The notes: generated from the letters alone by a model not told the origin. Positions 23,324 to 61,794 are shown, counted from the stretch's first letter. The stretch is DNA of 64,000 nt from a virus (IMGVR_UViG_3300044212_000014:1-64000); one strand, 5' to 3'. Numbers and translations are program-made.

Positions 23324-23330
23324 AAAAGAC

Positions 23331-23359
23331 TTGACAAAACGTTAAAAATGTGGTATAAT
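23331..23359 (+). promoter_or_regulatory. sigmaA promoter (duplicated at 31100-31128)
   Basis: TTGACA-17 bp-TATAAT with extended TG. Confidence 0.85.
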
Positions 23360-23379
23360 GTATTCATGGAGGTAAGGAA

Positions 23380-24927: not shown

Positions 24928-24928
24928 C

Positions 24929-25195
24929 ATGGATAAAGACATCTTAGCAGAATTTGAGAAAGAATTAAAGTCTGGTATTAAAATTGGGATTAACATGAAA
25001 GAGAATAACGACAAGGTTGAGTGTGGCATTATCGGTGATAAAGAGTATTCTCCTCAGCTTGTACTAACCTTGTTGATCATCTCCATTGCTAATCTTATGC
25101 AGATAGACCCAAGCGATCTGTTAGACGCGTGTGTTTCTGCTCGCAAGAAAGATGGTATTGACTTGTCAGACCAGTTCGAACATCTTATTAACTAA
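24929..25195 (+). CDS. Hypothetical protein
   Basis: AGGAGA RBS before the ATG at 24929. Confidence 0.55.
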   Translation: MDKDILAEFEKELKSGIKIGINMKENNDKVECGIIGDKEYSPQLVLTLLIISIANLMQIDPSDLLDACVSARKKDGIDLSDQFEHLIN

Positions 25196-25857
25196 TGGAT
25201 GAGTGCGAAGTAAGAAGTAATTGTAGGAAGAGTTATGATTGCGATTGGTGCGATTACTATAGCGAATATTCCCCAATAAACATTAATATTAAATGCAAAA
25301 GACAGATAGAAAATACAAAAATTCGTAGAGAGCAGAGGAAAGTGAAAAGAATTTCCGATGCCTCTAAGAGGGGAAGGTCAAACAGAAGGAACGGACGTAA
25401 GGCAGAACGAGACGTTGAAAATCTATTAAACGAACTGGGGTTAGATGCCTCAAGAACTCCTATGTCCGGCGCACTTAAAACAGCAAACCTCATACCTCAA
25501 TTAAAAGACCATGTGTCCGGTGATATAAGAATAAAGTATTTAGACAAAGAGCTTATAGTTGAATGCAAAAGGAATATTCATTCGGATAGTTGGTATAAAC
25601 TTACAGAAAAAGGTTTAATACATATAGATGGGTTTTGCTATGGTCTTACAAAAGAGTTATTCGAATATTTGGTAAACGGACTACTAAGTGGGGAATGTAT
25701 TGATATCCCAGACAACAAATTTAAGATGTTGCATAAATATTTCGACCAAGATAACTCAGATATCGTCGTTGTTACTAGGCCATGGCACGACCCCCTGTTC
25801 TTCTTAAAAGAAAAAACATTTGAATTATTCGGAGGTAATATAAATCATGATAAGTAG
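25195..25857 (+). CDS. Holliday junction resolvase-like PD-(D/E)XK nuclease
   Basis: G...ERDV..LL, SGAL, GDIRI...IVECKR. Confidence 0.7.
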   Translation: MDECEVRSNCRKSYDCDWCDYYSEYSPININIKCKRQIENTKIRREQRKVKRISDASKRGRSNRRNGRKAERDVENLLNELGLDASRTPMSGALKTANLIPQLKDHVSGDIRIKYLDKELIVECKRNIHSDSWYKLTEKGLIHIDGFCYGLTKELFEYLVNGLLSGECIDIPDNKFKMLHKYFDQDNSDIVVVTRPWHDPLFFLKEKTFELFGGNINHDK

Positions 25858-26095
25858 CGAAAATAGAATGTCGAGAATTGAACCTACGTCGCTTTATATC
25901 TCTAGCGTTAGCGAGAAAGACCAGCATGGAATTGACCGTTTAGTCGCAACTCGCATTATGGCTTTAAATGCAACGACTCCTAAGCCTATCGTGGTAAAGA
26001 CGTTCGCTATCGGAGACTTTGACAACGGGGTAAAAATAGAAACTTCCGAACGTCTTTTGGAAGTAACTAAAGATGCCATGGAGGATATAGGATAA
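25847..26095 (+). CDS. Hypothetical protein
   Basis: Translationally coupled ORF. Confidence 0.5.
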   Translation: MISSENRMSRIEPTSLYISSVSEKDQHGIDRLVATRIMALNATTPKPIVVKTFAIGDFDNGVKIETSERLLEVTKDAMEDIG

Positions 26096-26532
26096 TGCCT
26101 CCGGCATATGAAGAGTTGGTAAGCCAATTCGAAGAAATAAAGTATAGATACGAACAACTCACGGATACAGATGTGTTAGAGGCATTCTCTCTCATGAGAG
26201 ATTCCTCTTCACTACTGGCAAGTTACGACACGATGGTAGCGGAGTCATACAAACTAACGGCACTTACCGAAAGACAAGCTAGGGCGGTAGAGGCCAGAAA
26301 AAGTATAGAACTTTCTGTTAAACCGACGGAAGGCGCGAGAAGAGCAACCGCTGATGAAGAAGTCGTATCGGCGTGGAATAAATATATATCGGTAGCTACA
26401 AGTCAGAAATATATAGAAGCCAACGCAAAGTTCCTTAGTAGAGTATATTTCGATGCCAAGATGATAACTGAGAATTGTTATCGAAAGGAAAGGCCGGCAG
26501 TAGGAACAGACCGTATTGTTGGTAGAACGTAA
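26095..26532 (+). CDS. Hypothetical helical protein
   Basis: Translationally coupled ORF. Confidence 0.55.
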   Translation: MPPAYEELVSQFEEIKYRYEQLTDTDVLEAFSLMRDSSSLLASYDTMVAESYKLTALTERQARAVEARKSIELSVKPTEGARRATADEEVVSAWNKYISVATSQKYIEANAKFLSRVYFDAKMITENCYRKERPAVGTDRIVGRT

Positions 26533-26549
26533 TCAGCCTAGGAGGTTTT

Positions 26550-27071
26550 ATGCCAAGAACAAGAAAAAATGAAACTTATTCTGTAGATGATTTAAAAGTA
26601 ACTAAATATGAACCATATACGCCAGAGGCCCCGAAGGTGAAGGTAAAGTTTATAAAAGAAAGACCCGACTCTAAGGCTCCTGAATATAAGACGGATGGCT
26701 CGTTTGCTTTTGACCTGTACTCCGATAGGGACTGTACTGTTGTTGGTAATAAACCTACACTAATTTCTTTGGGGGTAAAAGTTGAAATTCCATCTGGATA
26801 TGGTATGTTAATTATTCCTAGGTCATCCATTGGGAGCAAAACTCCCCTTCGTCAGTCAAATTCAGTTGGCCTAATTGATAGTGATTACCGTGGTGTTGTT
26901 ATGGTAATGTATGAATCAAACAGAGATATTGCTGGTTCGACTATAGTTCGTAGAGGGGATAGAATAGCGCAGGGATTTCTAATCCCATATGTAAATGTTG
27001 ACTTTGTAGAAGCAGACGAATTAAGCGAGACAGAAAGGGGTACTGGTGGATTTGGTTCTACTGGTAGATAG
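26550..27071 (+). CDS. dut: Trimeric dUTPase
   Basis: AFDL, PRSS, GLIDSDYRG, DRIAQ, RGTGGFGSTG motifs. Confidence 0.95.
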   Translation: MPRTRKNETYSVDDLKVTKYEPYTPEAPKVKVKFIKERPDSKAPEYKTDGSFAFDLYSDRDCTVVGNKPTLISLGVKVEIPSGYGMLIIPRSSIGSKTPLRQSNSVGLIDSDYRGVVMVMYESNRDIAGSTIVRRGDRIAQGFLIPYVNVDFVEADELSETERGTGGFGSTGR

Positions 27072-27080
27072 GAGAACGAT

Positions 27081-27288
27081 ATGTGTGTAACTAGAGTGCA
27101 ACTATTTTTTATGGTAGCAGGATTCATTGCTGGTCTTGTGTCCCTATCTGGTGTTATATACCATCTTGTTATGACATTTCGATGGAATGATATTGTAGCG
27201 TGGAGTGGTATGTTATCGTCTTATATTGTTTGAGGTATCCGACCTATTTAAGCCAGACTTTGAAGATAATGACATGGAGGATAAATAA
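27081..27288 (+). pseudogene. Small membrane protein, frameshifted relative to copy 2 (34850-35056)
   Basis: Extra C near 27220 (TCGTCTTAT vs TCGTTTAT) gives a TGA at 27231-27233. Confidence 0.7.
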
Positions 27289-29739: not shown

Positions 29740-31092
29740 TTGAAAATATATAACGGCGATTGTATGGAATGCTTACTAATGATACCAGATAATAGCGTAG
29801 ATGCTGTAGTTACTGATCCCCCTTATGAATTAGGATTCATGGGCAAAAAGTGGGACAAGACAGGGATAGCTAATAATGTAGACATGTGGCACGAAGTATT
29901 ACGTGTTTTAAAACCGGGCGGTCACTTGCTGGCATTTGGGGGTACTCGACAGGTAAGAGTTATCTGTGTACCCGACGGAATAAAGGACATGAACGACATG
30001 CTGGTAGCTGGCATAAATCCGGCAGATTTACCGTCAGAAGACATTAGTAAGTTTGTTTTGAGGCGCATCCTTAATAAATGTAAAACGATAGAGCAAGAGT
30101 ACTCAAAAGCGGAAGAGTTTTTTAGGACAGTATCTAGTCAGCTTATAAAACTGGATATAATCCATATGTTATCAGAACGCTGGGGGAAAGAGTTTGATGA
30201 CCTAAAAAAGACATTCTCAGCAGTAGGTGAGGACACAGAATCCATATTACAAGAAGCGTCAAACGTAGATGATTGTATCGCAGACCTACGACAGATATAT
30301 GAGTCTGGGGGATACCCAACACACTTCCAACAAATTGATAACTGTATTCATAAGGTAGAAAAGAAACAAGTAGTTATCGTAGGGGCTTGTGCTGGTTGTG
30401 GTAAGTCTAACTTTGCTATAGAGTATATGTTAAGAGCTATATGCCACAATAAACAACGTGTTATATTCTTCTCTCTCGAAATGCCAAAGGGCAAACTCAT
30501 GGAGAGAATAATTGCCCAGTTGTTAAAAGTGCCAGTTCCAGATGTAGAAAACTTAATATTACAGGGAAACCCGTTAGTATTAAAAATACTAGACCTGTTA
30601 CGCAAGAAATTAATTGTGTTTGATGGTAACTCTATGGACATGGAAGGTATTGCGAGGAGAATAGATATCGTCAATGCCAAAGAACTTCTTGGTGGCCCAG
30701 TTGATATGGTGTTTGTTGATTACTTCGGCTATGTAAAGGGTACGTCTGATTTCGAGGGTGCGTCTAATGCCGCTAGGGAAATGAAGGGTATCGCGAAAAG
30801 TAGAAACATTATATTCGTTATGTTAAGCCAGTTAAACCGTAGTGGTAATGAATACAGCGAACCAACGATGCAACAGTTAAAACTTACGGGAGACTTAGAA
30901 GCGTCTGGAGATATCGTAATGTTATTGTGGCGACCAGAGAAAGACCCTAACTTAGCACTTGCTGATAGACAGGAGCTAGAGAATGTGACTAGGTTAAAGA
31001 TATGCAAAGCCAGAGATGGTATGTATGGCTCCAATATGATACAGTTTAAGTATAACAAACAGGAATCACGACTAGAAGAATGTTACATGTAG
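29740..31092 (+). CDS. Chimeric ORF: DNA methyltransferase N-terminus fused in frame to the primase-helicase C-terminus (duplication junction)
   Basis: The first ~70 aa match 37507-38538 (TDPPY...FGGTR); the rest (QVRVICV...EECYM) matches 21341-23323. Confidence 0.9.
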   Translation: MKIYNGDCMECLLMIPDNSVDAVVTDPPYELGFMGKKWDKTGIANNVDMWHEVLRVLKPGGHLLAFGGTRQVRVICVPDGIKDMNDMLVAGINPADLPSEDISKFVLRRILNKCKTIEQEYSKAEEFFRTVSSQLIKLDIIHMLSERWGKEFDDLKKTFSAVGEDTESILQEASNVDDCIADLRQIYESGGYPTHFQQIDNCIHKVEKKQVVIVGACAGCGKSNFAIEYMLRAICHNKQRVIFFSLEMPKGKLMERIIAQLLKVPVPDVENLILQGNPLVLKILDLLRKKLIVFDGNSMDMEGIARRIDIVNAKELLGGPVDMVFVDYFGYVKGTSDFEGASNAAREMKGIAKSRNIIFVMLSQLNRSGNEYSEPTMQQLKLTGDLEASGDIVMLLWRPEKDPNLALADRQELENVTRLKICKARDGMYGSNMIQFKYNKQESRLEECYM

Positions 31093-31148
31093 AAAAGACT
31101 TGACAAAACGTTAAAAATGTGGTATAATGTATTCATGGAGGTAAGGAA

Positions 31149-31811
31149 ATGCCATATACAATACCTGAGTTCGAAAATTACATATTATATGATAACCTAG
31201 ATGTTTTTAGCAAGACGTCTGGTAGGTTTTTAAGCGCAGAGGTGGTAACACTGTGCAACGGCAAAACTAGAAAGCATTTTACTAGGAACTCTCTTAAGAA
31301 ATATATCCCCATAGATGATAAGTATATTAAAATCCCTGGTTTTAACGGGGAATATGGGATATCAAAAGATGGTGAGGTTTATAGCTTTAAAACATTTAGG
31401 GTATTAAAATCATACCCCAACAAATATCGTCGCGGATATGTATATATCATACTGAGCCTCAATGGGAAACCAAAAACTTGCAAGGTACATAGGTTAGTAG
31501 CATTAACATACATACCAAATCCAAGTGGTAAGGAGTGCGTTAACCATATTAATGGAAATGTACAGGATAACAGTGTCGATAATTTGGAATGGTGTACAGT
31601 TAAAGAAAACAACCTTTGGAATGTTAGTAGAGGCGTTGCTAATGGTGGTAACCATAAAAAATGTTATCTATACACCAAGTCCGGAGAGTTTGTTGGTTCG
31701 TTTCGCTCTATTAGAAAGGCTAGCGAATACGTCAAGTCTATTGGGTGTAGCGGATATGATGATATTAGGAAATTAAAATATAATAAATATTACACGTTGG
31801 AGGTGCGTTAA
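31149..31811 (+). CDS. HNH endonuclease (copy 2)
   Basis: Identical protein to 23380-24042. Confidence 0.9.
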   Translation: MPYTIPEFENYILYDNLDVFSKTSGRFLSAEVVTLCNGKTRKHFTRNSLKKYIPIDDKYIKIPGFNGEYGISKDGEVYSFKTFRVLKSYPNKYRRGYVYIILSLNGKPKTCKVHRLVALTYIPNPSGKECVNHINGNVQDNSVDNLEWCTVKENNLWNVSRGVANGGNHKKCYLYTKSGEFVGSFRSIRKASEYVKSIGCSGYDDIRKLKYNKYYTLEVR

Positions 31812-32696
31812 TTGCCACTAAGTAGCTATTTTTGTCCCGACGGCGGGAGAATCAAAATTGAAGATTGTTTAAAAGAATGTAGATTAAAAGGTAAGATGAA
31901 CCCAATAACCGGAATGGACTATGTTACTTGCGGGAGGTGTTTATCTATACCGACATTAAGAGCCGTTTCCGAACAGAGAAGTTGGACTGGCAAACCATCC
32001 ACTACTCAGTTGTTACGAGGAACGAGAGAGGCATATTTAACTCTTACGAGAGAATATGCAATCGACCCCAAAAGTATGATGTTTGCTCTTCACGGCACAA
32101 ACACTCATGCGAGACTCGAAGACGGCATGTCAGAAGAGGACTTGGGGGAACAGCGGCTGGATGACGGAGTGTCCACTGGAGCATTTGACTACTACTCAGA
32201 TGAAGACGGGGGAACGCTATTCGACTATAAGACGTACTCTTCATATGTTTGTGGAAAGTATATGGGAATAGGGAGCAGGAAGGAACTAATAGGCCATTAC
32301 AAGAATGGTAAACCTAGATTTCAGTCAGTAAGAACTTATGGTAATGCAAAGCACGACCTAGACCTAGCCATACAGTTAAACGATTACCGGATGAAAATAC
32401 AAAAGGTTCTTAAAAAGCCAGTAGCAAACATGGTTTGTGAGATGATTGTAAGAGACGGTGGCACGTATATGGCTAAGAATAGAGGGGTAGATGATACTGC
32501 ATACCTCATTAAGGTTGGTAAAATAAGTGATATTTGGGTTGAGAGGTATATGAAACGAAAAGCAAACGATTTAATTTCTGCGCTAGAAACTGGGAGAATG
32601 CCGCCACCATGCAGACCACATGAATGCTGGCACGGTAGAAAATGCAGAGACTTCTGCCCAGTTAATATGTATTGTGACGCATACAAAGGAGAATAA
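31812..32696 (+). CDS. Cas4/RecB-like exonuclease (copy 2)
   Basis: Identical protein to 24043-24927. Confidence 0.75.
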   Translation: MPLSSYFCPDGGRIKIEDCLKECRLKGKMNPITGMDYVTCGRCLSIPTLRAVSEQRSWTGKPSTTQLLRGTREAYLTLTREYAIDPKSMMFALHGTNTHARLEDGMSEEDLGEQRLDDGVSTGAFDYYSDEDGGTLFDYKTYSSYVCGKYMGIGSRKELIGHYKNGKPRFQSVRTYGNAKHDLDLAIQLNDYRMKIQKVLKKPVANMVCEMIVRDGGTYMAKNRGVDDTAYLIKVGKISDIWVERYMKRKANDLISALETGRMPPPCRPHECWHGRKCRDFCPVNMYCDAYKGE

Positions 32697-32697
32697 C

Positions 32698-32964
32698 ATG
32701 GATAAAGACATCTTAGCAGAATTTGAGAAAGAATTAAAGTCTGGTATTAAAATTGGGATTAACATGAAAGAGAATAACGACAAGGTTGAGTGTGGCATTA
32801 TCGGTGATAAAGAGTATTCTCCTCAGCTTGTACTAACCTTGTTGATCATCTCCATTGCTAATCTTATGCAGATAGACCCAAGCGATCTGTTAGACGCGTG
32901 TGTTTCTGCTCGCAAGAAAGATGGTATTGACTTGTCAGACCAGTTCGAACATCTTATTAACTAA
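32698..32964 (+). CDS. Hypothetical protein (copy 2)
   Basis: Identical to 24929-25195. Confidence 0.55.
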   Translation: MDKDILAEFEKELKSGIKIGINMKENNDKVECGIIGDKEYSPQLVLTLLIISIANLMQIDPSDLLDACVSARKKDGIDLSDQFEHLIN

Positions 32965-33626
32965 TGGATGAGTGCGAAGTAAGAAGTAATTGTAGGAAGA
33001 GTTATGATTGCGATTGGTGCGATTACTATAGCGAATATTCCCCAATAAACATTAATATTAAATGCAAAAGACAGATAGAAAATACAAAAATTCGTAGAGA
33101 GCAGAGGAAAGTGAAAAGAATTTCCGATGCCTCTAAGAGGGGAAGGTCAAACAGAAGGAACGGACGTAAGGCAGAACGAGACGTTGAAAATCTATTAAAC
33201 GAACTGGGGTTAGATGCCTCAAGAACTCCTATGTCCGGCGCACTTAAAACAGCAAACCTCATACCTCAATTAAAAGACCATGTGTCCGGTGATATAAGAA
33301 TAAAGTATTTAGACAAAGAGCTTATAGTTGAATGCAAAAGGAATATTCATTCGGATAGTTGGTATAAACTTACAGAAAAAGGTTTAATACATATAGATGG
33401 GTTTTGCTATGGTCTTACAAAAGAGTTATTCGAATATTTGGTAAACGGACTACTAAGTGGGGAATGTATTGATATCCCAGACAACAAATTTAAGATGTTG
33501 CATAAATATTTCGACCAAGATAACTCAGATATCGTCGTTGTTACTAGGCCATGGCACGACCCCCTGTTCTTCTTAAAAGAAAAAACATTTGAATTATTCG
33601 GAGGTAATATAAATCATGATAAGTAG
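32964..33626 (+). CDS. Holliday junction resolvase-like nuclease (copy 2)
   Basis: Identical to 25195-25857. Confidence 0.7.
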   Translation: MDECEVRSNCRKSYDCDWCDYYSEYSPININIKCKRQIENTKIRREQRKVKRISDASKRGRSNRRNGRKAERDVENLLNELGLDASRTPMSGALKTANLIPQLKDHVSGDIRIKYLDKELIVECKRNIHSDSWYKLTEKGLIHIDGFCYGLTKELFEYLVNGLLSGECIDIPDNKFKMLHKYFDQDNSDIVVVTRPWHDPLFFLKEKTFELFGGNINHDK

Positions 33627-33864
33627 CGAAAATAGAATGTCGAGAATTGAACCTACGTCGCTTTATATCTCTAGCGTTAGCGAGAAAGACCAGCATGGAA
33701 TTGACCGTTTAGTCGCAACTCGCATTATGGCTTTAAATGCAACGACTCCTAAGCCTATCGTGGTAAAGACGTTCGCTATCGGAGACTTTGACAACGGGGT
33801 AAAAATAGAAACTTCCGAACGTCTTTTGGAAGTAACTAAAGATGCCATGGAGGATATAGGATAA
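33616..33864 (+). CDS. Hypothetical protein (copy 2)
   Basis: Identical to 25847-26095. Confidence 0.5.
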   Translation: MISSENRMSRIEPTSLYISSVSEKDQHGIDRLVATRIMALNATTPKPIVVKTFAIGDFDNGVKIETSERLLEVTKDAMEDIG

Positions 33865-34301
33865 TGCCTCCGGCATATGAAGAGTTGGTAAGCCAATTCG
33901 AAGAAATAAAGTATAGATACGAACAACTCACGGATACAGATGTGTTAGAGGCATTCTCTCTCATGAGAGATTCCTCTTCACTACTGGCAAGTTACGACAC
34001 GATGGTAGCGGAGTCATACAAACTAACGGCACTTACCGAAAGACAAGCTAGGGCGGTAGAGGCCAGAAAAAGTATAGAACTTTCTGTTAAACCGACGGAA
34101 GGCGCGAGAAGAGCAACCGCTGATGAAGAAGTCGTATCGGCGTGGAATAAATATATATCGGTAGCTACAAGTCAGAAATATATAGAAGCCAACGCAAAGT
34201 TCCTTAGTAGAGTATATTTCGATGCCAAGATGATAACTGAGAATTGTTATCGAAAGGAAAGGCCGGCAGTAGGAACAGACCGTATTGTTGGTAGAACGTA
34301 A
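33864..34301 (+). CDS. Hypothetical protein (copy 2)
   Basis: Identical to 26095-26532. Confidence 0.55.
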   Translation: MPPAYEELVSQFEEIKYRYEQLTDTDVLEAFSLMRDSSSLLASYDTMVAESYKLTALTERQARAVEARKSIELSVKPTEGARRATADEEVVSAWNKYISVATSQKYIEANAKFLSRVYFDAKMITENCYRKERPAVGTDRIVGRT

Positions 34302-34318
34302 TCAGCCTAGGAGGTTTT

Positions 34319-34840
34319 ATGCCAAGAACAAGAAAAAATGAAACTTATTCTGTAGATGATTTAAAAGTAACTAAATATGAACCATATACGCCAGAGGCCC
34401 CGAAGGTGAAGGTAAAGTTTATAAAAGAAAGACCCGACTCTAAGGCTCCTGAATATAAGACGGATGGCTCGTTTGCTTTTGACCTGTACTCCGATAGGGA
34501 CTGTACTGTTGTTGGTAATAAACCTACACTAATTTCTTTGGGGGTAAAAGTTGAAATTCCATCTGGATATGGTATGTTAATTATTCCTAGGTCATCCATT
34601 GGGAGCAAAACTCCCCTTCGTCAGTCAAATTCAGTTGGCCTAATTGATAGTGATTACCGTGGTGTTGTTATGGTAATGTATGAATCAAACAGAGATATTG
34701 CTGGTTCGACTATAGTTCGTAGAGGGGATAGAATAGCGCAGGGATTTCTAATCCCATATGTAAATGTTGACTTTGTAGAAGCAGACGAATTAAGCGAGAC
34801 AGAAAGGGGTACTGGTGGATTTGGTTCCACTGGTAGATAG
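34319..34840 (+). CDS. dut: dUTPase (copy 2)
   Basis: Identical protein to 26550-27071. Confidence 0.95.
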   Translation: MPRTRKNETYSVDDLKVTKYEPYTPEAPKVKVKFIKERPDSKAPEYKTDGSFAFDLYSDRDCTVVGNKPTLISLGVKVEIPSGYGMLIIPRSSIGSKTPLRQSNSVGLIDSDYRGVVMVMYESNRDIAGSTIVRRGDRIAQGFLIPYVNVDFVEADELSETERGTGGFGSTGR

Positions 34841-34849
34841 GAGAACGAT

Positions 34850-35056
34850 ATGTGTGTAACTAGGATGCAACTATTTTTTATGGTAGCAGGATTCATTGCT
34901 GGTCTTGTGTCCCTATCTGGTGTTATATACCACCTTATTATGACTTTCGAATGGAATGATATTGTTGCATGGGGCGGTATGTTATCGTTTATATTGTTTG
35001 AGGTATCAGACCTATTTAAACCAGAATTTGAAGATAATGACATGGAGGATAAATAA
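34850..35056 (+). CDS. Small two-TM membrane protein (intact copy)
   Basis: AGGAGA RBS, two hydrophobic helices. Confidence 0.65.
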   Translation: MCVTRMQLFFMVAGFIAGLVSLSGVIYHLIMTFEWNDIVAWGGMLSFILFEVSDLFKPEFEDNDMEDK

Positions 35057-41883: not shown

Positions 41884-42097
41884 CTTTAGATACCTCCGCA
41901 TACATTGAAAGTAGACCATAATTAAGAATGATAATAATACTCCCCGCAAAACCTACCCCGAAAACATATACTGTGTCAATTCCAAATATAGCTGATATAA
42001 TAATGGCGATAGCTATCATATTTACCCATACCACGCCTATTTTTACAAACACCTTGTCTATTACTTCCTCTGATACTTTTATCCCAAAAACACTCAT
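41876..42097 (-). CDS. Small membrane protein
   Basis: Hydrophobic; coupled to its neighbours. Confidence 0.5.
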   Translation of the reverse strand: MSVFGIKVSEEVIDKVFVKIGVVWVNMIAIAIIISAIFGIDTVYVFGVGFAGSIIIILNYGLLSMYAEVSKDE

Positions 42098-43269
42098 AAT
42101 ATACCCTCCATATCTAGTTCTTTCACAAAGCGCCGTATTCCTTTCTGCATTTCTATGCTATCTTTACAATACAAGTTATAAATTGTTACGTCTCTATCTT
42201 GTGTAATACGGTGTATTCTATCTTGAGCCTGTTTACTTACAGATGGCGACCATAGATATTCTAAAAACACAGCCGTATCACTACTTGTTAGTGTTATACC
42301 TGTTGCAGAGGCTTGCAATGAACATACTATAACGGCCTTCTCTTTGTCTTGAAATTTCCTTACCGCCTCTTCTCTTTTATACATATCTTGACCGCCATAT
42401 ATACCAACAGCAATATCTTTGTACTGCTCGAAAATTTTAAACAGCAAGTCACGATGATGCACGAATATAACTGGTCGTTTCCCATTATACAGCAGATTAT
42501 TTATAAAGTCAATAGCCATTGGGAATTTTTCTTCATTTACTTTTTTCTGCTGTTCCTCCATTTCTTTAAATGTAGTTGCGAATGGCTGTTTTATCTCAGC
42601 TATTGGAATGTCGATAATTTGTTTGCGGGGAAGGCATATCCCACATTCATCTTTTGTTCTCCGTATCATATAGGAAGACAATAATTCTTTCAACTCTCTT
42701 TGGTTAGATGCCCCGCTATAATCCCATCCCCAACCACTGAATACGGGACTACAATATTTTTTATAAAACTTATCATATCCACCAAACTTACAAAGTAGAT
42801 TCATAATGTCAAGTTGTGGGGCTAAGTCTGATGGGCCGGATAACATTGGCGTGCCACTCAACATAAATACTTTTCGGGAAAATGACGTACATTCTTTGGC
42901 TAGTATATGCCGTTGTGAATATCTTCCCTTTAGGTAATGACACTCATCAAATACAATACCATGATACATTCCTCTTTTACACCACTCCTTAGCATACTTC
43001 AATCTCTCATAGTTTGTTACGGTTATTAGCCCACCGCAATAATTGTCCGGAACAATATCAATTCCCAACCACTTCTTTATTTCGTTACACCAATTCAGCT
43101 TTAATGAAGCTGGACAGACTACCAAGAATCTTCTATTCTTTTCAAGGTGATGTTTTATTCCGAATAACATCGTTGCTGTTTTGCCTAGCCCCATCTCATC
43201 AGCTAATAATAATTGGTGTGACTTCTGGATAACCTTTACTGCTTCTTTCTGGTATGGTTTTAAGGACAT
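42094..43269 (-). CDS. SNF2/SWI2-like SF2 helicase
   Basis: LADEMGLGKT, VVCPASLK.NW, DECH, LSGTP, GITLT, QAQDRIHR. Confidence 0.9.
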   Translation of the reverse strand: MSLKPYQKEAVKVIQKSHQLLLADEMGLGKTATMLFGIKHHLEKNRRFLVVCPASLKLNWCNEIKKWLGIDIVPDNYCGGLITVTNYERLKYAKEWCKRGMYHGIVFDECHYLKGRYSQRHILAKECTSFSRKVFMLSGTPMLSGPSDLAPQLDIMNLLCKFGGYDKFYKKYCSPVFSGWGWDYSGASNQRELKELLSSYMIRRTKDECGICLPRKQIIDIPIAEIKQPFATTFKEMEEQQKKVNEEKFPMAIDFINNLLYNGKRPVIFVHHRDLLFKIFEQYKDIAVGIYGGQDMYKREEAVRKFQDKEKAVIVCSLQASATGITLTSSDTAVFLEYLWSPSVSKQAQDRIHRITQDRDVTIYNLYCKDSIEMQKGIRRFVKELDMEGIL

Positions 43270-43292
43270 CTCCACCTCCTATTATATCATAC

Positions 43293-52692: not shown

Positions 52693-52704
52693 TTTTATTT
52701 CCTC

Positions 52705-52884
52705 CTATTCAATTAAGAACTCATCATAACCGCATGTTATGTGGCATTTGCTTCTTTTCTTTATATTCCATTGTATCGCGTCAATATCTTGACTATCTAA
52801 AGTATAACAGTTTTCGAGTAGCTCGTCAATACAATGGTTTAAGCTTCCTTGTGTAATTACCCTCCCGTTTATTAATAGCTTCAT
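52705..52884 (-). CDS. Small hypothetical protein whose RBS is stem II of hammerhead HH1
   Basis: GGGAGG upstream of ATGAAG (alternative start at 52893). Confidence 0.55.
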   Translation of the reverse strand: MKLLINGRVITQGSLNHCIDELLENCYTLDSQDIDAIQWNIKKRSKCHITCGYDEFLIE

Positions 52885-52894
52885 TTTAATCATC

Positions 52895-52963
52895 CTCCCT
52901 CATCAGTGCCATATAGCCTATGGCATACGTGAGAGTATGCGTCTCCTCTTCACGTTTCGGGAA
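52895..52963 (-). ncRNA. Type II hammerhead ribozyme HH1
   Basis: Minus strand: UUCCC-GAAA-stem III (CGUG.AGAG/CUCUCACG)-UA-stem I (UGCCAUA/UAUGGCA)-CUGAUGA-GGGAG. GUA triplet; cleavage predicted between 52926 and 52925. Confidence 0.9.
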
Positions 52964-53076
52964 ACAGTTCTCGTACTGTCAGACGATAATAGATTTGGGA
53001 ATAAAGTAAGTAGTTTGACGCATGAACGGTTTTAGCCCCGTCAGGCACGAACATTAAACTGCTACCTCATGTTTCT

Positions 53077-53105
53077 ATCATATCATATTCTATTGGCTCT
53101 GTCAA
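53077..53105 (-). promoter_or_regulatory. sigmaA promoter upstream of HH1
   Basis: TTGACA-17 bp-TATGAT on the minus strand. Confidence 0.75.
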
Positions 53106-53207
53106 TATAATCTTGTAAAGATTGTAGGCAAGGCGGCAAACAATAATTCACATTCTTACATTGATGATACCATACGTTTATACCGTCGGACTTCTCGCGC
53201 TGTACAT
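53083..53207 (-). pseudogene. Small ORF with an apparent 1-bp deletion near its start
   Basis: Strong AAGGAGGTG RBS gives MYSARSPTV*, while a shifted frame continues EKSDGINVWYHQCKNV...RI*. Confidence 0.4.
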
Positions 53208-53233
53208 GACGCTCTCACCTCCTTTGTGCGTGT

Positions 53234-53497
53234 CTAGTACCAGTCGTCATTGTCATAATATTTTTTCACATCAGCCCCCATTTCAGAGAGAGCTTTTAAG
53301 CATTGTAACTCATGGTCTACACAACCTCTGAAAATGATATCTCTTGTTCCCCTAACACTCACATCAATCCCCTGCATAGCCATCTCCGCCATGGCATTTG
53401 CAAAACAATAGTCCTCATGATTTAGCCCAATGCTGTTAATGATATCCCCTAATTCTTCCGGTGTATAACTCAATTTCTTTCCCATTTTATCCTCCAA
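53234..53497 (-). CDS. Hypothetical protein
   Basis: ORF in the early operon. Confidence 0.55.
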   Translation of the reverse strand: MEDKMGKKLSYTPEELGDIINSIGLNHEDYCFANAMAEMAMQGIDVSVRGTRDIIFRGCVDHELQCLKALSEMGADVKKYYDNDDWY

Positions 53498-53753
53498 TTT
53501 TTACAAAATATAAGCAATCTAAGCCACGTTCCCACGACCGGATATTTTTGGTCGCAATTTTAACTTCATCATTGAAGTCCTCTTTTGTAGTGCCAACCAA
53601 AGTAAACTCAATGGGACTAGCTATTTGTATATCGTCGTGATTCATGTACACTAGCAAGGTATTGCCTTTCTTAGCGTGTCGATATGCGGCATTTTTAGGT
53701 ACTCTCATATATTCCTCGCCGTCTTTTATGACTCTCATTTCTTTAAACTGCAC
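53487..53753 (-). CDS. Hypothetical protein
   Basis: GGAGGT RBS. Confidence 0.55.
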   Translation of the reverse strand: MQFKEMRVIKDGEEYMRVPKNAAYRHAKKGNTLLVYMNHDDIQIASPIEFTLVGTTKEDFNDEVKIATKNIRSWERGLDCLYFVKIGG

Positions 53754-53767
53754 TTATATACCTCCTA

Positions 53768-54121
53768 TTACCAATGGAATTTACCTTTTCCGGGCTTAAT
53801 TACCCAATTCGGATAAAAACCGCCTCTTTCGTTTAGGTATAGAATCCCTCTTATTTTCTCTTGTTTACCTCTTTTACCAACGATGTTCGTAGGCTGAACA
53901 ATATTGAAAACATCTCTAATAATTCTTTGTATACGCCCCGTTGTGACACTATATTTACGGTCATCAAACCTAGCAAATTCTCCGTCCGTCCTAAATATCT
54001 CTGTTTGATATGACTTAATAACATACTCATTATCATCCGTATAGTATGCCGAGACAGACTCTCCTACGAATGGTACGCTGTGTCTGATTTTATCTGGCAT
54101 ATCTTTATATGTAGTTTTCAT
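53768..54121 (-). CDS. Hypothetical protein (SY.T.I...YS.TT.R.Q phage family)
   Basis: GGGG RBS; motif typical of phage early proteins. Confidence 0.55.
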   Translation of the reverse strand: MKTTYKDMPDKIRHSVPFVGESVSAYYTDDNEYVIKSYQTEIFRTDGEFARFDDRKYSVTTGRIQRIIRDVFNIVQPTNIVGKRGKQEKIRGILYLNERGGFYPNWVIKPGKGKFHW

Positions 54122-54135
54122 TTTATTACGCCCCC

Positions 54136-54450
54136 TTATAGTAATACAGAATCTTGAATTTCTTCCGTTGCGAGTGCTATTGACTCTTGATTCAGTCCGG
54201 CCTTAATACCTTTTATTGCACCGCATACTTTTTCGTAAGTGGTAAATAGTAACTCAATTTTGAATGTCTTCTCGGTTATAACCTGCCCGTTTTCATGAGT
54301 ATACACGCCCTCTGCGCCTACAAACGTAGCGCCGTCAATTCCATTCTTTGCAAACTCTCCATTGATAATGGATTTTGCCTTTTTAACAGAGATAATTTGT
54401 TTCTTTAAATCCTTGTCAGCTAAGCCGACGTATAACGTATATCTTTTCAT
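54136..54450 (-). CDS. Candidate SAM lyase / DUF3574-like ferredoxin-fold protein
   Basis: YTLYVG...G.T...A.GVY.HENG....EKT..IE...LNQESI resembles the GCY...EEKT...EQD core of T3 SAMase. Confidence 0.55.
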   Translation of the reverse strand: MKRYTLYVGLADKDLKKQIISVKKAKSIINGEFAKNGIDGATFVGAEGVYTHENGQVITEKTFKIELLFTTYEKVCGAIKGIKAGLNQESIALATEEIQDSVLL

Positions 54451-54498
54451 ATCAACTCCACCTTTCAAAGTTATTATATCACGTTTTTACAGCTTTGT

Positions 54499-54801
54499 CT
54501 ACTGTTTTTCCAGCCACTCTTTCAACTCGTTCATATCAAACGGGCATTTAAAATCATCTAAACTATTAAAACTAATTAAGTCATCTCCTATTTCTGATAG
54601 GGTAAAAAAATTGTCGTCCGTAGAATATAATCCAGTTTCTACCATCCACGCCATTTCCCAAGGGGTAGATTCGTTGAACCAGTGGTTAAAGTGGTCAGGA
54701 ATATTTTCATGAATCCTATCACCTTCTCGTCCTTTTTCGCCAATCATGTCATTCCATAAACCAATCAATTCCATATCTGTTAAGTTTTTTAAATTTACCA
54801 T
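54499..54801 (-). CDS. Acidic hypothetical protein (paralogue of 51438-51755)
   Basis: Shared WN...SFNSL.D..P.D..L pattern. Confidence 0.6.
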   Translation of the reverse strand: MVNLKNLTDMELIGLWNDMIGEKGREGDRIHENIPDHFNHWFNESTPWEMAWMVETGLYSTDDNFFTLSEIGDDLISFNSLDDFKCPFDMNELKEWLEKQ

Positions 54802-54802
54802 G

Positions 54803-55042
54803 TTAATTATTCCTTTCTTGAAAACGGCATCCAAAACTGAAATATGTTTTATGTGAAGAAATTTCTATAAACCTAACTGGCTTATAAAAACCAGTACGAT
54901 GTCTAAAACCTATAGCACCTAGACGAGCAAGTTCTTTTTTTGTAAGTAACTGCCCTTCTACTACCGGAATGTGAGATACACAAACCGCGTTTTTGTTTTT
55001 TGTGATGATAACTCCATCCGTCATGATTTTATAATATTTCAT
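54803..55042 (-). CDS. Small basic hypothetical protein directly downstream of hammerhead HH2
   Basis: GAGGAGG RBS then ATG (MKYYKIMTDG). Confidence 0.6.
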   Translation of the reverse strand: MKYYKIMTDGVIITKNKNAVCVSHIPVVEGQLLTKKELARLGAIGFRHRTGFYKPVRFIEISSHKTYFSFGCRFQERNN

Positions 55043-55061
55043 TTTAACTCCTCCTCTACCT

Positions 55062-55120
55062 ATCTCATCAGTGTATAGCCAGTAACCGCTATACAGACAG
55101 GGCAAATGCCCTGTTTCGAT
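55062..55120 (-). ncRNA. Type II hammerhead ribozyme HH2
   Basis: Minus strand: AUC-GAAA-CAGGGC(AUUU)GCCCUG-UC-UGUAUAGC(GGUUACUG)GCUAUACA-CUGAUGA-GAU. Canonical GUC triplet; cleavage predicted between 55096 and 55095. Confidence 0.9.
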
Positions 55121-55282
55121 TCGCCCACCTGTCACGTAGGAAGTCTTTCTGTAAATTCAATTTTCAAAGAACAGGTGTTCGCGTGGGAAACAACCCACGT
55201 TCCCGTTTTCATACTGGTTACATTCTCAGTAATAGCAAGTTACTATTACCTATCCGACCACTGCCGGACTTTCTATGGCTCT

Positions 55283-55311
55283 ATTATACAACCCTTGATT
55301 CAACTTGTCAA
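55283..55311 (-). promoter_or_regulatory. Early sigmaA promoter
   Basis: TTGACA-17 bp-TATAAT with extended TG. Confidence 0.85.
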
Positions 55312-55376
55312 GCAAATCTTTTTTGAATGTAGACTGTCGCTATCTGCCGTTTCTACACCGGGAGATTTACTGGTTT

Positions 55377-55431
55377 GTCTCGTCAGTATACAGAGAACCA
55401 TTCTGTATATACGGGCATTGCCCGTTTCGAC
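55377..55431 (-). ncRNA. Type II hammerhead ribozyme HH3
   Basis: Minus strand: GUC-GAAA-CGGGC(AAU)GCCCG-UA-UAUACAGA(AUGGUUC)UCUGUAUA-CUGACGA-GAC. Loop I UGGUU can pair with the AACCA just 3' of stem II. Cleavage predicted between 55410 and 55409. Confidence 0.9.
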
Positions 55432-55448
55432 CTCTACCTTTCTCCTTC

Positions 55449-55477
55449 ATTCTACCATACTATTTCTTGCCTGTCAA
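55449..55477 (-). promoter_or_regulatory. Early sigmaA promoter
   Basis: TTGACA-17 bp-TAGAAT with extended TG. Confidence 0.8.
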
Positions 55478-55547
55478 GGGATTTTGTGTGCCTGGCGACT
55501 GCCGATATTATCCGTCCTTCCAATCTGTCTGTCCCTTGACACTTACT

Positions 55548-55576
55548 ATCTTACATTATTTTGACCTGTTTGTCAA
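55548..55576 (-). promoter_or_regulatory. Early sigmaA promoter
   Basis: TTGACA-17 bp-TAAGAT. Confidence 0.7.
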
Positions 55577-55585
55577 GCCTTTTCT

Positions 55586-55837
55586 TTACAGTGATTCCCA
55601 ACCCGTTTTTTCGAGGTACTGGATGTCTACACATCCATATGCTTCTCCTATAGAATCAAGAGGGGCAAAAGACGAATCGTTTGAAGAAAGGCCGTGAAAG
55701 TAAACCTTTCCGCCCCCGTCCACAAGCCGGAATTTGTGAACGCATTTTTCTTTGATAAACCTTGCGGTTTTATATCCGGTCAACTTCTTTTCACCTGCGT
55801 TTGTGTCATTGATAAAATCCTTTGTAATTATGAACAT
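55586..55837 (-). CDS. First early gene, small hypothetical protein
   Basis: AAGGGG RBS before MFIITK; F.L.D..G..YF.G...FAPLD..G...GC..I.Y phage family pattern. Confidence 0.6.
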   Translation of the reverse strand: MFIITKDFINDTNAGEKKLTGYKTARFIKEKCVHKFRLVDGGGKVYFHGLSSNDSSFAPLDSIGEAYGCVDIQYLEKTGWESL

Positions 55838-55883
55838 ATCGGTCGCCCCTTTTCTAATAACCATTAACTTAACTTGCAAGCTC

Positions 55884-55912
55884 ATTGTACCATGTAGTGA
55901 AGGTGTTGTCAA
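55884..55912 (-). promoter_or_regulatory. Outermost early sigmaA promoter
   Basis: TTGACA-17 bp-TACAAT with extended TG. Confidence 0.8.
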
Positions 55913-55975
55913 GGAATATTTTGAAATTGGTGGGAAAACATTTTCACGTTCTCCTATAATGATATATATATAAGA

Positions 55976-56095
55976 AACAATACCTAGTATGGTATATACC
56001 TATAGGGAGTAAGAGTATAAAGGTATACCCAGTTAGGGTATGAACCCATAGGGGGTATAAGTACATAGGTATAGGGGGTATGGGTATGGCATTTG
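55976..56095. repeat. Cluster of degenerate TAGGG(GG)TAT / TACC repeats in the long non-coding gap
   Basis: TATAGGGAGT, TTAGGGTAT, CATAGGGGGTAT, TATAGGGGGTATGGGTAT. Confidence 0.55.
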
Positions 56096-56666
56096 GAACG
56101 GCGGGAAAAAGAAGAAACGTTCCTATTTAATAATAACCCTATTCTTTATATATACAGTAGTAAGTAGTAACAGAGATTAAATGATAAAGAGTATTTGTTA
56201 GTAGTTTACATTATTAGATAACTAAAAACACAGAAACATATAAAAATAACTAATAATACTTAAAAATACATAGTTTTAGACACTTCATATCCATTACTAA
56301 TACCCATTACTTAACAATAATTATTCCTTAAGAATGGCTTAACAGAGCCGTTTATAGCGATAATGAGTATCATTCTCAGGGGGTGGGGCTTCGTCAGGGC
56401 AAAGGAATGGCGGGGGGGCGATATTAGGGAAGTTATTCCAATCTTATACGTCCATTTTTTTACCAAATTACGTTTTCCAAAAAATTTTTTACAATTTTCC
56501 ATACCTATTTATATAAATATACAGCGTTTTTGCATAAAACTATCATATAACACGGGGTTTGTACCGACAAATGCTAATATATATACAAATATAGTGTAGT
56601 AATGTACTGATAGTAAGACAAAAGAAAGTAAAGAAGACGAATAATAGTGTAAAGGGGAGATATAAT

Positions 56667-59316: not shown

Positions 59317-59619
59317 ATGCAAAAAAAGGATGGAGTTGTTATTATGAAGTGTCATGAAGACCCAGACTTTTCAGATCACAAGTTATATGGCCCGTTTTTA
59401 GACGTTGGCTTTAATTTTATTGTAAATGTAGATCGGGTTACAAGTATAATACCGATGCTCGGATTAAAAGCAAAGCGTCTATACCTAGAAAAAAGAGACG
59501 CTGGCCTCATTATTGATGCTACGCGGGGACGTAAAAAGCAATGCCTTATCGTACTGGATACAGGCGAGGTAGTAGCATGTGCGTTTAGACCGAAAACAAT
59601 TATTGACAGACAGTTCTAA
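59317..59619 (+). CDS. RemA/DUF370-like protein
   Basis: LDVGFN.IV..DRV..I......KR......G.IIDATRGRK...IV.DTG.VV...RP.TI matches the RemA (YlzA) pattern; start uncertain. Confidence 0.75.
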   Translation: MQKKDGVVIMKCHEDPDFSDHKLYGPFLDVGFNFIVNVDRVTSIIPMLGLKAKRLYLEKRDAGLIIDATRGRKKQCLIVLDTGEVVACAFRPKTIIDRQF

Positions 59620-59631: not shown

Positions 59632-61794
59632 TTGAGTTTTATCCAAAATAACAGTAATCCTTCGCTCGACCAAATAGACACGAGCCTTGTTACTGCGGTA
59701 CAAAGAGACATACAAGACGCAGAGGATTACCAAACTGCGGTAATTCTTCCTACCGTGAAAGAACGGTATGAGATATACTATGCGGATAAAGACTATTACG
59801 CTAGGAAATTCCCTAAACTGTCTAAAGTATCCTCTTTGGTATCCACTGACGTAACAGATACAATCGAATGGGCGTTACCATCTCTTACTAAGGTATTTAC
59901 GCAAGGTGACGAGATTGTTACGGTACAAGGCGTAACAGAAGAAGATGACCGTAACGCTGATGTCATGCAGGAATTGCTGAAATACCAGCTACAGCGCCAG
60001 AATAGGTTCTTCCCAATCCTATATAACTGGATGAAAGATGCTTTGATTACTGGTATGGGCATTATAAAATGCTACTGGGAACGTAAAGAAGACACACAGT
60101 TGATGGAACAGTCCATGAACTTACGCGCTTTCCAGCAGTTATCTCAGTCTGGGGTACAAATCCAGTCCGTTGATGGCCCTGACCAGTTCGGTATATTCAG
60201 AGTACAGTATTATTCCCCATATTACGTAAAAAACGCTCCAATGATAGAGAATATACTGGTATCGGAGTTGCTTTATTCATCAGATGCCAAGACTCTCGAT
60301 GAAGCTAATTTCGTAGCTCACAAGAAGAAAGTTACTATGAGTTACCTTCGCGAACGAGAACAGCAGGGAATTTACGCCAATATAGACCAAATAACTCCCA
60401 AGCCCATTAATTCATTCGTATATGACGACGAAGTTGAAATGGTTATTGGTGATAACTACCAAGGCATGAGCCGTGAGGCTGATGACGCGAGAGCAGAGGT
60501 AGTAATTTACGAATGCTATACAAAGCTCGACTGGAATAACGATGGTGTACTGGAAGACCTGATTGTAACGATTTGTGATGACGTTATCCTTCGGGTAGAG
60601 CCGAATTACATGGGTAGACATCCATTCTTCTCTATCTCACCAACGAAAGACCCTCACCGCATCTGGGTTAAGCGTTCTTACGCCGAACTAATTGGGGAGC
60701 TACAGGACTTAAAAGTAGCCCTGACTCGTCAGATTGTGCAGAATATATCGCTTACAAACGACCCTAAAATGATATTATCGGAAGATTCTATCAATATTAA
60801 GGATTATGTAGACGGTAGGGCAGTTATTCGGAAGAAAGCAAACCAGCCAATGAATGACGTGGCTATGGCTATGCCAGTAAACCAATTAAGCCCGTATACA
60901 TATCAATTCCTTGAATATATCGAAGGCCAGAAGGAAAATCGTACTGGTATTACTCGGTATAACCAAGGTTTAGACGCGAATACCTTGAATAAAACCGCTA
61001 CGGGCATCTCCGCTATCTTAGGACAAAGCTCACAACGGTTAGAGTTAATAGCGAGAATGTTTGCTGAAACTGGATTCTACGAACTATTCCGCTTTTTGAT
61101 TGGTTTAAATCAGCGGTTTATGGATCAGGGAACAGTAATTCGGCTAACAAATAAAGAATTAAAGATAAGTCCTGATGATTTACAGGGTAACTTTGATTTG
61201 ATTGTAAATTCTGGTATCTCAATGGCTAGCAAACAGGAAACACAGCTTACACTACAGACAATGATGACTGCGCTAATGCAGGCAAGAGCATCTGGGCTTC
61301 CTATTTGTACGCCAGAAAACATATACAACTTGTTTAAGAAATGGATTGAATCTGCTGGCCTTAGAAATTATGCGGACTATATCACGGAACCTGCCCTAGT
61401 AGGACAGAGGATGATGATAGAAGAACAGTTAAAGATGCAGGTATTGGCATCACTACCGCCTCAAGCAACGCAAATGTATATGGAAACTGGAGTGTTACCA
61501 CCGCAGGTATTACTACAGTTGCCGCCTGAATTACAAGCGCTGTTCGGTAGCGGTTATCCGACAGACGGAGGAATGAATAGTGGACAAAACGGAGCTGGAA
61601 TACAAAACGGAGTTGGAGTCCCAACAACGCCTAATGCAGGCAATGGAGCTGTCCGACAAAGCAGAAATAACGCTGGAAGTGGCGGACAAATGGTTGGAGG
61701 ACTATCAAGGGTGGATAACAAACAGCCTCAAAACGTGCCAAGACAATCAGGTAATGGGCCTTCGCAACCTTCTAGTGGTGTCGGAGGCTTTTAA
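59632..61794 (+). CDS. Portal protein (P22-like) with a low-complexity C-terminal tail
   Basis: 720 aa; YEIYY, DALITGMG, NPY.GRHPF-like segment, ELIGELQDL, TGITRYNQG, TATGI; downstream of TerL. Confidence 0.85.
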   Translation: MSFIQNNSNPSLDQIDTSLVTAVQRDIQDAEDYQTAVILPTVKERYEIYYADKDYYARKFPKLSKVSSLVSTDVTDTIEWALPSLTKVFTQGDEIVTVQGVTEEDDRNADVMQELLKYQLQRQNRFFPILYNWMKDALITGMGIIKCYWERKEDTQLMEQSMNLRAFQQLSQSGVQIQSVDGPDQFGIFRVQYYSPYYVKNAPMIENILVSELLYSSDAKTLDEANFVAHKKKVTMSYLREREQQGIYANIDQITPKPINSFVYDDEVEMVIGDNYQGMSREADDARAEVVIYECYTKLDWNNDGVLEDLIVTICDDVILRVEPNYMGRHPFFSISPTKDPHRIWVKRSYAELIGELQDLKVALTRQIVQNISLTNDPKMILSEDSINIKDYVDGRAVIRKKANQPMNDVAMAMPVNQLSPYTYQFLEYIEGQKENRTGITRYNQGLDANTLNKTATGISAILGQSSQRLELIARMFAETGFYELFRFLIGLNQRFMDQGTVIRLTNKELKISPDDLQGNFDLIVNSGISMASKQETQLTLQTMMTALMQARASGLPICTPENIYNLFKKWIESAGLRNYADYITEPALVGQRMMIEEQLKMQVLASLPPQATQMYMETGVLPPQVLLQLPPELQALFGSGYPTDGGMNSGQNGAGIQNGVGVPTTPNAGNGAVRQSRNNAGSGGQMVGGLSRVDNKQPQNVPRQSGNGPSQPSSGVGGF

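Follow-up and report, generated by a model that had tools for sequence, protein, structure and literature searches.

Three candidate type II hammerhead ribozymes in a promoter-rich small-gene block of an uncultured phage

Introduction

In type II hammerhead ribozymes stem II can be as short as two pairs, and most of these ribozymes pair loop I with nucleotides just 3' of stem II; in the same study, candidates were rejected when the pairs adjacent to the core were not canonical (Perreault et al. 2011, PMC3088659). In prophages, clusters of these ribozymes flank single genes or short blocks, three such arrays cleaved in vitro, and processing of long phage transcripts into gene-length messenger RNAs (mRNAs) was proposed (PMC3088659). 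Here, three elements of this type, termed HH3, HH2 and HH1, are described from the minus strand of IMGVR_UViG_3300044212_000014:1-64000, a stretch of 64,000 nucleotides (nt) that was analysed at its full length (the window) and belongs to a genome record of 74,271 base pairs (bp) from an uncultured virus. They occupy intergenic gaps in a promoter-rich block of small genes, and probably punctuate transcripts that read through it.

Ribozyme processing of phage transcripts had been put forward by an earlier reading of this DNA, made by a model from the sequence alone (the sequence-only reading); the idea is already found in Perreault et al. 2011 (PMC3088659). The present elements share with the hammerheads of that study, and with those of the Rfam family RF02276, the identical core, the permutation, a short stem II and a pseudoknot (in HH3 and probably HH2), and with the prophage arrays the clustering by single small genes and the proposed transcript-cutting role. 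Unlike those of the prophages, they belong to an apparently lytic, uncultured 74-kilobase (kb) phage with an SU10-type portal and are interleaved with dense consensus host-type promoters; HH3 is followed by another ribozyme, and HH1 lacks a pseudoknot and has a stem II that is also a ribosome-binding site (RBS). The arrangement is not new, and its unusual local traits are the dense consensus promoters, a gene-free interval bounded by ribozymes, and the stem II that serves as RBS. In Desulfovibrio, three type II hammerheads with phage-like genes nearby have been shown active in vivo (PMC8782182), and a 2019 review regarded the purpose of bacterial and phage hammerheads as still undefined (PMC6765202). 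A further likeness is HHphage of haloviruses HF1/HF2, which lies 13 nt before an early gene, with a transcript whose 5' end was mapped to no more than 3 nt from the cleavage site (PMC3088659). Unlike HH1-HH3, HHphage belongs to an archaeal virus, has a variant core needing high Mg2+, and is a single element.

Hammerhead cleavage leaves 2',3'-cyclic phosphate and 5'-hydroxyl (5'-OH) ends, and 5'-terminal hairpins stabilise mRNA in Bacillus and Escherichia coli. RNase III, which cuts the early polycistronic RNA of T7 and of Bacillus phage SP82, leaves a 5'-phosphate and a 3'-OH. The likeness to the present locus lies in intercistronic cuts, an early transcript made by the host polymerase, hairpin-ended products and altered stability; the cuts predicted here differ in being RNA-catalysed and host-independent, with 5'-OH and 2',3'-cyclic phosphate ends. 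RiboJ, attributed to Lou et al. in 2012, is reportedly a synthetic insulator that combines a satellite-RNA hammerhead with a hairpin. It resembles the present locus in the order promoter, ribozyme, RBS, in the removal of a promoter-dependent leader, and in a 5'-OH RNA that starts structured. RiboJ is engineered, however, with a different permutation and an added downstream hairpin, whereas the natural elements are mostly intergenic and not tied to promoters (among the matches listed in the survey below). The glmS ribozyme of Bacillota is likewise a self-cleaving RNA in a 5' leader with a 5'-OH product that decides the fate of the mRNA; unlike HH1-HH3 it is ligand-dependent and its product is degraded, an outcome that the blunt hammerhead hairpin may reverse.

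Results

The minus strand of 52700-56100 was read, and both strands of the 74,271-bp record were scanned with a descriptor that accepts only the strict core together with a stem I and a stem III of 4 bp or more. The record contains exactly three type II hammerheads, all on the minus strand and all in intergenic gaps, where the sequence-only reading had placed them. As that reading had also held, all three show the same type II permutation; genome-wide scans found no type I or type III hammerhead. The elements are as follows (segments 5' to 3').

55431-55377 (to 55371 with the tail), minus strand: HH3, type II hammerhead, predicted cleavage between 55410 and 55409. Segments GUC / GAA / stem III ACGGGC-AAU-GCCCGU / A17 / stem I UAUACAGA-AUGGUUC-UCUGUAUA / CUGACGA / GAC; stem II 55431-55429 with 55379-55377, G12 55428, stem III 55425-55411, A17 55410, stem I 55409-55387, core CUGACGA 55386-55380.
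55120-55062 (to 55056 with a possible tail), minus strand: HH2, type II hammerhead, predicted cleavage between 55096 and 55095. Segments AUC / GAA / stem III ACAGGGC-AUUU-GCCCUGU / C17 / stem I UGUAUAGC-GGUUACUG-GCUAUACA / CUGAUGA / GAU; stem II 55120-55118 with 55064-55062, G12 55117, stem III 55114-55097, C17 55096, stem I 55095-55072, core CUGAUGA 55071-55065.
52964-52894, minus strand: HH1, type II hammerhead, predicted cleavage between 52926 and 52925. Segments UUUCCC / GAA / stem III ACGUGA...UCACGU / A17 / stem I UGCCAUA-GGCUA-UAUGGCA / CUGAUGA / GGGAGG; stem II 52964-52959 with 52899-52894, G12 52958, stem III including an insert 52955-52927, A17 52926, stem I 52925-52907, core CUGAUGA 52906-52900.

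In each element the 5' strand of stem II is followed by G12 A13 A14, a closed stem III (A15.1...U16.1), an unpaired H17, a closed stem I, the run C3 U4 G5 A6 N7 G8 A9, and the 3' strand of stem II, in which G10.1 pairs with C11.1. The conserved core is matched exactly in HH3, HH2 and HH1 (N7 = C, U and U; H17 = A, C and A, respectively). All 11 core nucleotides are intact, as are all core-adjacent pairs, with 10.1-11.1, 1.1-2.1 and 15.1-16.1 being G-C, U-A and A-U in all three. Stem I comprises 7-8 bp and stem III 6-7 bp, the latter longer in HH1, where it carries an insert; both are perfectly paired with different sequences in each element, which bears out the earlier statement that structure is kept and sequence is not. 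Folding assigns -6.5 to -9.9 kcal/mol to the stem I hairpins and -8.7 to -11.8 kcal/mol to those of stem III. Loops close stems I and III, and stem II is open, with 3 bp in HH3, 3 bp in HH2 and 6 bp in HH1. "Fully paired helices", the earlier wording, is thus apt for stems I and III; stem II has just 3 bp in HH2 and HH3, as is normal for the class. The 5' ends predicted for the downstream products, 55409, 55095 and 52925, agree with those given before. By every sequence and structure criterion tested, HH1-HH3 are predicted type II hammerheads.

A chance origin of the three hammerheads was rejected on a shuffle comparison and a wider scan: the descriptor gave 3 matches, against 0.09 on average and at most 1 in any of 100 dinucleotide shuffles, and permitting one core mismatch in the type II scan added only 1 match, which is intragenic and lacks a stem II.

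The elements were also scored with the Rfam Hammerhead_II model RF02276, which has a gathering score of 37 bits. In scans of about 100 nt, HH2 scored 39.4 bits, HH3 32.6 bits (E 1.3e-05) and HH1 23.7 bits (E 0.0039), such that this check, proposed with the original claim, came out in favour of HH2 and below the gathering score for the other two. At larger scale no hammerhead was returned by Rfam, whether in the whole window at the gathering score, in 5 kb and 421 nt at E up to 10, or in a genome search with RF02276. The hammerhead of one related locus (L001, see below) behaved alike: it scores 39.7 bits alone, yet was missed in a gathering scan of 148 kb covering ten related loci. These blanks are attributed to the speed filters of Rfam, as the motifs do score in scans of about 100 nt. 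The gathering scan of the ten loci returned no other ribozyme class, a weak negative since it also missed the L001 hammerhead. Phage genomes annotated by standard Rfam scanning probably under-report hammerheads, because such scans missed all of those described here, including one above threshold.

The minimum-free-energy fold of HH3 is a three-way junction, and its loop I (UGGUU, 55400-55396) pairs with the 3' tail (AACCA, 55375-55371) through five Watson-Crick pairs, at the offset most frequent in the viral set. HH2 has a possible loop I-tail contact (UUACU/GGUAG, tail 55060-55056; three Watson-Crick and two G-U pairs), with an upstream GUGAC as an alternative candidate partner. Shuffled tails often equal the complementarity of a single element once G-U pairs are allowed; at the level of the class, runs of at least four Watson-Crick pairs between loop I and tail occur in 42% of 154 viral hammerheads (among the matches listed), compared with 14% of shuffled tails.

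Placement was assessed in a survey with a pattern for this sequence subtype, which matched at least 119 viral stretches and in which requiring both stems left 151 distinct hammerheads on 97 contigs; random same-strand positions served as control, and all figures in this paragraph hold among the matches listed. An RBS and the start of an open reading frame (ORF) of at least 40 amino acids (aa) lie 5-45 nt past the core in 71% (control 8%), with a median core-to-start distance of 29 nt, and the stop codon of an upstream ORF lies within 60 nt in 65% (control 20%). A strong sigma-70-type promoter within 250 nt upstream is found in 4% (control 4%), a comparison weakened by the differences in promoters between host phyla. 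Stem II has 3-4 bp in 123 of the 151. At least two hammerheads, spaced 230-1500 nt, occur on 28 of the 97 contigs, and the downstream proteins are small (median 96 aa), 115 of 124 being without a relative in the set. HH2 and HH1 are textbook members of this widespread design, because the survey shows the same placement between stop codon and RBS; the interleaving with promoters is a local feature. The survey thereby gives a quantitative placement rule (stop codon, hammerhead, a median of about 29 nt, start codon, in small-gene arrays) that could guide both experiments and annotation. Up to nine type II hammerheads lie on some strands of the set, and two IMG/VR loci (L065, 97-1079, and L102, 1951-5153) carry four each within 1-3 kb, at a spacing of about one small gene.

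The block around the ribozymes is tiled by small minus-strand ORFs (59-117 aa) with strong GGAGG-type RBSs, almost none of which have a family.

55586-55837, minus strand: ORF of 83 aa upstream of HH3, with a single weak PHROG match only.
55056-55048, minus strand: RBS GAGGAGGAG, directly 3' of HH2 and followed by ATG 55042.
54803-55042, minus strand: ORF of 79 aa; its ATG (55042) lies 22 nt past the HH2 core.
54499-54792, 54136-54453 (DUF3574-like), 53768-54121, 53487-53753 and 53234-53485, minus strand: ORFs between HH2 and HH1.
52705-52884, minus strand: ORF of 59 aa after HH1, with a weak match to phrog_30214.
55096-55409, minus strand: interval of 314 nt between the HH3 and HH2 cleavage sites, which holds the 55311 promoter.

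The 3' strand of HH1 stem II, GGGAGG (52899-52894), is the RBS of the next gene. The ATG at 52884, 15 nt past the core end and 9 nt past GGGAGG, is the likelier predicted start, because the ATG at 52893 chosen by the ORF finder abuts the RBS without a spacer. Between HH3 and HH2, the interval 55096-55409 contains no credible ORF (the longest on the minus strand has 33 aa and no RBS), and it folds somewhat better than shuffled sequences (z -3.3). On the plus strand, ORFs of 152 and 130 aa overlapping HH2 and HH3 were judged spurious, since they have no family matches and span three minus-strand promoters.

Promoters were sought by comparison with the sigma-70/sigmaA consensus, which is assumed for the host. 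The following promoter-like sites were found.

55912-55884, minus strand: TTGACA-17-TACAAT with TG, 11/12, upstream of the 83-aa ORF.
55576-55548, minus strand: TTGACA-17-TAAGAT, 10/12.
55477-55449, minus strand: TTGACA-17-TAGAAT with TG, 11/12, transcript start predicted near 55442.
55311-55283, minus strand: perfect consensus TTGACA-17-TATAAT, 12/12, in the HH3-HH2 interval.
54501-54473, minus strand: TAGACA-17-TATAAT with TG (extended -10), 11/12, followed by a gene and no ribozyme.
53105-53077, minus strand: TTGACA-17-TATGAT with TG, 11/12.
51259, minus strand: promoter-like site from the consensus scan.

The five promoters listed in the sequence-only reading (55912, 55576, 55477, 55311 and 53105) were all recovered; 54501 had been omitted and 51259 was added. 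Sites matching at least 11 of 12 positions number 6 on the minus strand of 50.5-58.5 kb, compared with 0.19 expected from 300 shuffles. The transcript start predicted for the 55477 promoter is about 11 nt ahead of HH3 stem II, and the distance from the -10 element to the ribozyme is about 163 nt for the 55311 promoter and HH2, and about 113 nt for the 53105 promoter and HH1. No terminator-like site was found by scanning the minus strand between 55912 and 52700; read-through is therefore expected, and transcripts would be cut at three defined points. The block is termed early on the strength of its gene size, its promoters and its position beside the divergent terminase, which suggest early expression. 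From the first minus-strand promoter towards the terminase, 55940-56100 contains many short ATACC(C)/CCTAT-type repeats, possibly an array for protein binding or one related to packaging.

Searches anchored on the terminase yielded 21 related loci, the terminases being 72-79% identical in all but three. A clean type II hammerhead is present in three of these (L001, at 8188-8254, L002 and L022), 1.5-1.9 kb upstream of the terminase and in the same orientation. Upstream of 56378, blastn found no nucleotide similarity between the early block and any relative. The element of the relatives is HH2-like, with the same stem III apex, GGCAUUUGCC, and paired changes relative to HH2 from A-U to U-A at 15.3-16.3 and from G-C to A-U at 15.4-16.4; HH2 and the L001 and L022 elements differ in stem III by compensatory changes. 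Base pairs were tabulated in standard hammerhead numbering, since a MAFFT alignment misplaced the stems. Across the five distinct elements of the clade, a small sample, 100% of stem I and III pairs are canonical, with changes on both sides at 9 of 13 variable positions. In the proposed check of related genomes, the stems show compensatory changes, and three complete relatives have no hammerhead. L001 and L022 share a loop I-tail contact, UGGC(U)/(A)GCCA. In L002 the hammerhead sits between a stop codon and the next RBS, with no strong promoter nearby. A pattern search for the HH2-like stem III returned two contigs only, both already among the relatives. Three copies of a AGGCTACGGCT motif lie in a long non-coding leader of L002 (9250-9480, minus strand), upstream of the gene that lies before the hammerhead in this phage.

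Beyond these loci, a megablast search of phage records with the region found no match. The terminase is at most 28% identical to those of isolated phages, and there is no cultured relative. Scanning genome contigs with two proteins, the terminase and the RemA-like one, turned up no prophage relative, and the protein atlas returned no host taxon.

Discussion

HH1-HH3 are probably self-cleaving hammerheads that punctuate read-through transcripts of a promoter-rich small-gene block, a reading to which we assign a probability of roughly 0.6. Sequence, structure, position and statistics are reported above; cleavage in vivo, and its effects on RNA stability and translation, are inferred. Host RNA polymerase would start at several sigma-70/sigmaA-type promoters and meet no terminator. 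Each hammerhead would fold after transcription of CUGANGA and of stem II's 3' strand, aided in HH3 and probably HH2 by the loop I-tail pseudoknot, and would cut after H17. Stems I and III being intramolecular, stem II alone would join the halves, and the products should separate after the cut. The upstream RNA would then end in the stem III hairpin and one nucleotide with a 2',3'-cyclic phosphate. The downstream RNA would begin at 55409, 55095 or 52925 bearing a 5'-OH at stem I's blunt base, followed by about 20 unpaired nucleotides (core and tail), the RBS and the start codon. Each cistron block would be uncoupled from upstream sequence and have the same leader whichever promoter fired; the structured 5' end should slow 5'-end-dependent decay, and both new ends would be protected.

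The sequence-only reading suggested that a paired hairpin at the new 5' end may block RNase J. In Bacillus subtilis, the 5'-OH product of glmS is degraded by RNase J1, according to a passage of PMC11780869 that cites Collins 2007. In hosts with this type of enzyme the hydroxyl itself is not protective, and any protection would have to be provided by the hairpin with its blunt end at stem I.

Several observations weigh against this reading. HH1 and HH3 are below the Rfam threshold, which admits HH2 only, although their cores are intact. The centroid fold of HH2 retains stems I and III, but its lowest-energy fold competes with stem III; for HH1 the lowest-energy fold is a competitor structure, which also pairs the RBS, and no pseudoknot between loop I and the 3' tail was found. 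From the evidence on the loop I-tail contact, HH3 is expected to cleave fast, HH2 probably fast, and HH1 doubtfully. This ranking is supported by folding, which places the HH3 junction at the energy minimum and a competitor there for HH1. Of the three, HH1 is the one for which rapid cleavage in vivo is the most uncertain, as it has no pseudoknot and a score well under the Rfam cut-off. HH3 is followed by the 55311 promoter and then HH2; the 300 nt downstream of HH3 hold no gene, and the term "mRNA leader" therefore does not fit this element. Among the complete relatives, L002 has one hammerhead only and three others have none; the hammerheads are dispensable in the clade. Where the host has RNase J, a 5'-OH can mark an RNA for degradation (PMC11780869), and both "sigmaA" and "RNase J" in the sequence-only reading are assumptions from the style of promoters and RBSs.

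Promoter insulation is the strongest competing account. In this account the ribozymes mainly serve to strip promoter-specific leaders, such that tandem promoters yield one identical mRNA, as with RiboJ. The geometry lends itself to this: at least one strong promoter lies 20-165 nt upstream of each hammerhead, HH3 follows the predicted 55477 start after about 11 nt, and HH2 and HH1 lie between promoter and RBS. RiboJ-like insulation, as originally proposed, is therefore plausible but unproven at HH2, at HH1 and for the 55477 promoter with HH3. It is absent at 54501, where the promoter runs into a gene without a ribozyme, and the claim that every early transcript receives a ribozyme-defined end fails at this point. 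No gene follows HH3, and the L002 hammerhead lies between two genes with no strong promoter nearby. As a general purpose of the class insulation is unlikely, since promoter proximity is not enriched in the survey (with the caveat on host promoters given there) and the stop-to-RBS placement is general. As the main purpose at this locus, it is considered unlikely.

A translational switch at HH1, in which stem II masks the RBS, keeping the gene silent, until cleavage frees it, would be compatible with transcript punctuation and is somewhat less likely again than insulation. GGGAGG (52899-52894) pairs with UUUCCC (52964-52959) over 6 bp, 9 nt before ATG 52884, and in the alternative lowest-energy fold the site pairs with CUCUC of the stem III insert; both masking segments would leave with the 5' fragment. 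The six pairs, two of them G-U, are nonetheless weak, and helices of this kind are opened by ribosomes. A core-to-start distance this short is found in a minority of viral hammerheads (among the matches listed), and HH1, the least canonical of the three, may cleave slowly.

It is tempting to speculate that the type II permutation is a dedicated bidirectional capping device. A single RNA-only cut would yield an upstream 3' hairpin with a cyclic phosphate and, on the downstream side, a blunt hairpin at the 5' end, a landing pad of single-stranded RNA and a released RBS, here combined with tandem host promoters and with a 314-nt non-coding RNA, linear or circular, carved out by HH3 and HH2 and acting early. 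We regard this combination as improbable.

There is little likelihood that the function of HH3 and HH2 is to release that 314-nt RNA (55409-55096) as a phage small RNA, or as one circularised by a host RtcB-type ligase. The interval is fed by three promoters, has no credible ORF and folds with a z of -3.3, although this score takes in the ribozyme halves. As in retrozyme-like excised RNAs, two same-strand ribozymes enclose it. The 5'-OH and 2',3'-cyclic phosphate ends would suit RtcB by established chemistry, but no phage RtcB was found, and a search for a T4-type RNA ligase was also blank, although its control search matched nowhere. Circular products were raised as a possibility by Perreault et al. 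2011, who sought circles in their own systems and found none (PMC3088659). The interval is not conserved, having no homologue in the relatives and no Rfam match, and it contains a perfect promoter. Its length is typical of the one-gene spacing in other clusters, and it may be a decayed gene slot.

That the elements are inactive relics or selfish passengers of no benefit to the phage is very unlikely: their distribution among close relatives is patchy, the flanking genes are hypervariable and HH1 and HH3 fall under the Rfam cut-off, but each of the three retains 11/11 core nucleotides and the core-adjacent pairs, the stems pair perfectly although their sequences have diverged completely, and placement relative to RBSs is non-random across phages.

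For the role of phage hammerheads the locus offers a compact natural test case, with three ribozymes that differ in quality, six strong promoters, an absence of terminators, a stem II doubling as RBS, and a ribozyme pair enclosing a gene-free RNA.

Additional observations

Elsewhere in the window, a RemA-like gene (59317-59619) is followed by the SU10-type portal gene (59632-61794). Other genes include those for DNA polymerase III alpha (16546-19473), a DnaG-DnaB primase-helicase fusion (21341-23323) and an SNF2 helicase (42094-43275). A tandem duplication (22153-27230 and 29922-34999; offset 7,769 bp, at least 5.1 kb, 99.2% identical) copies several ORFs downstream of the primase-helicase, and may be real or an assembly artefact. 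Beside a tRNA-Leu, 15767-15850 contains an 84-nt match to both ends of the transfer-messenger RNA (tmRNA) model, at 76 bits and with the whole middle missing. Just downstream of this tmRNA-like match, at 16034-16139, lies a match to the EGFOA RNA, at 61.6 bits.

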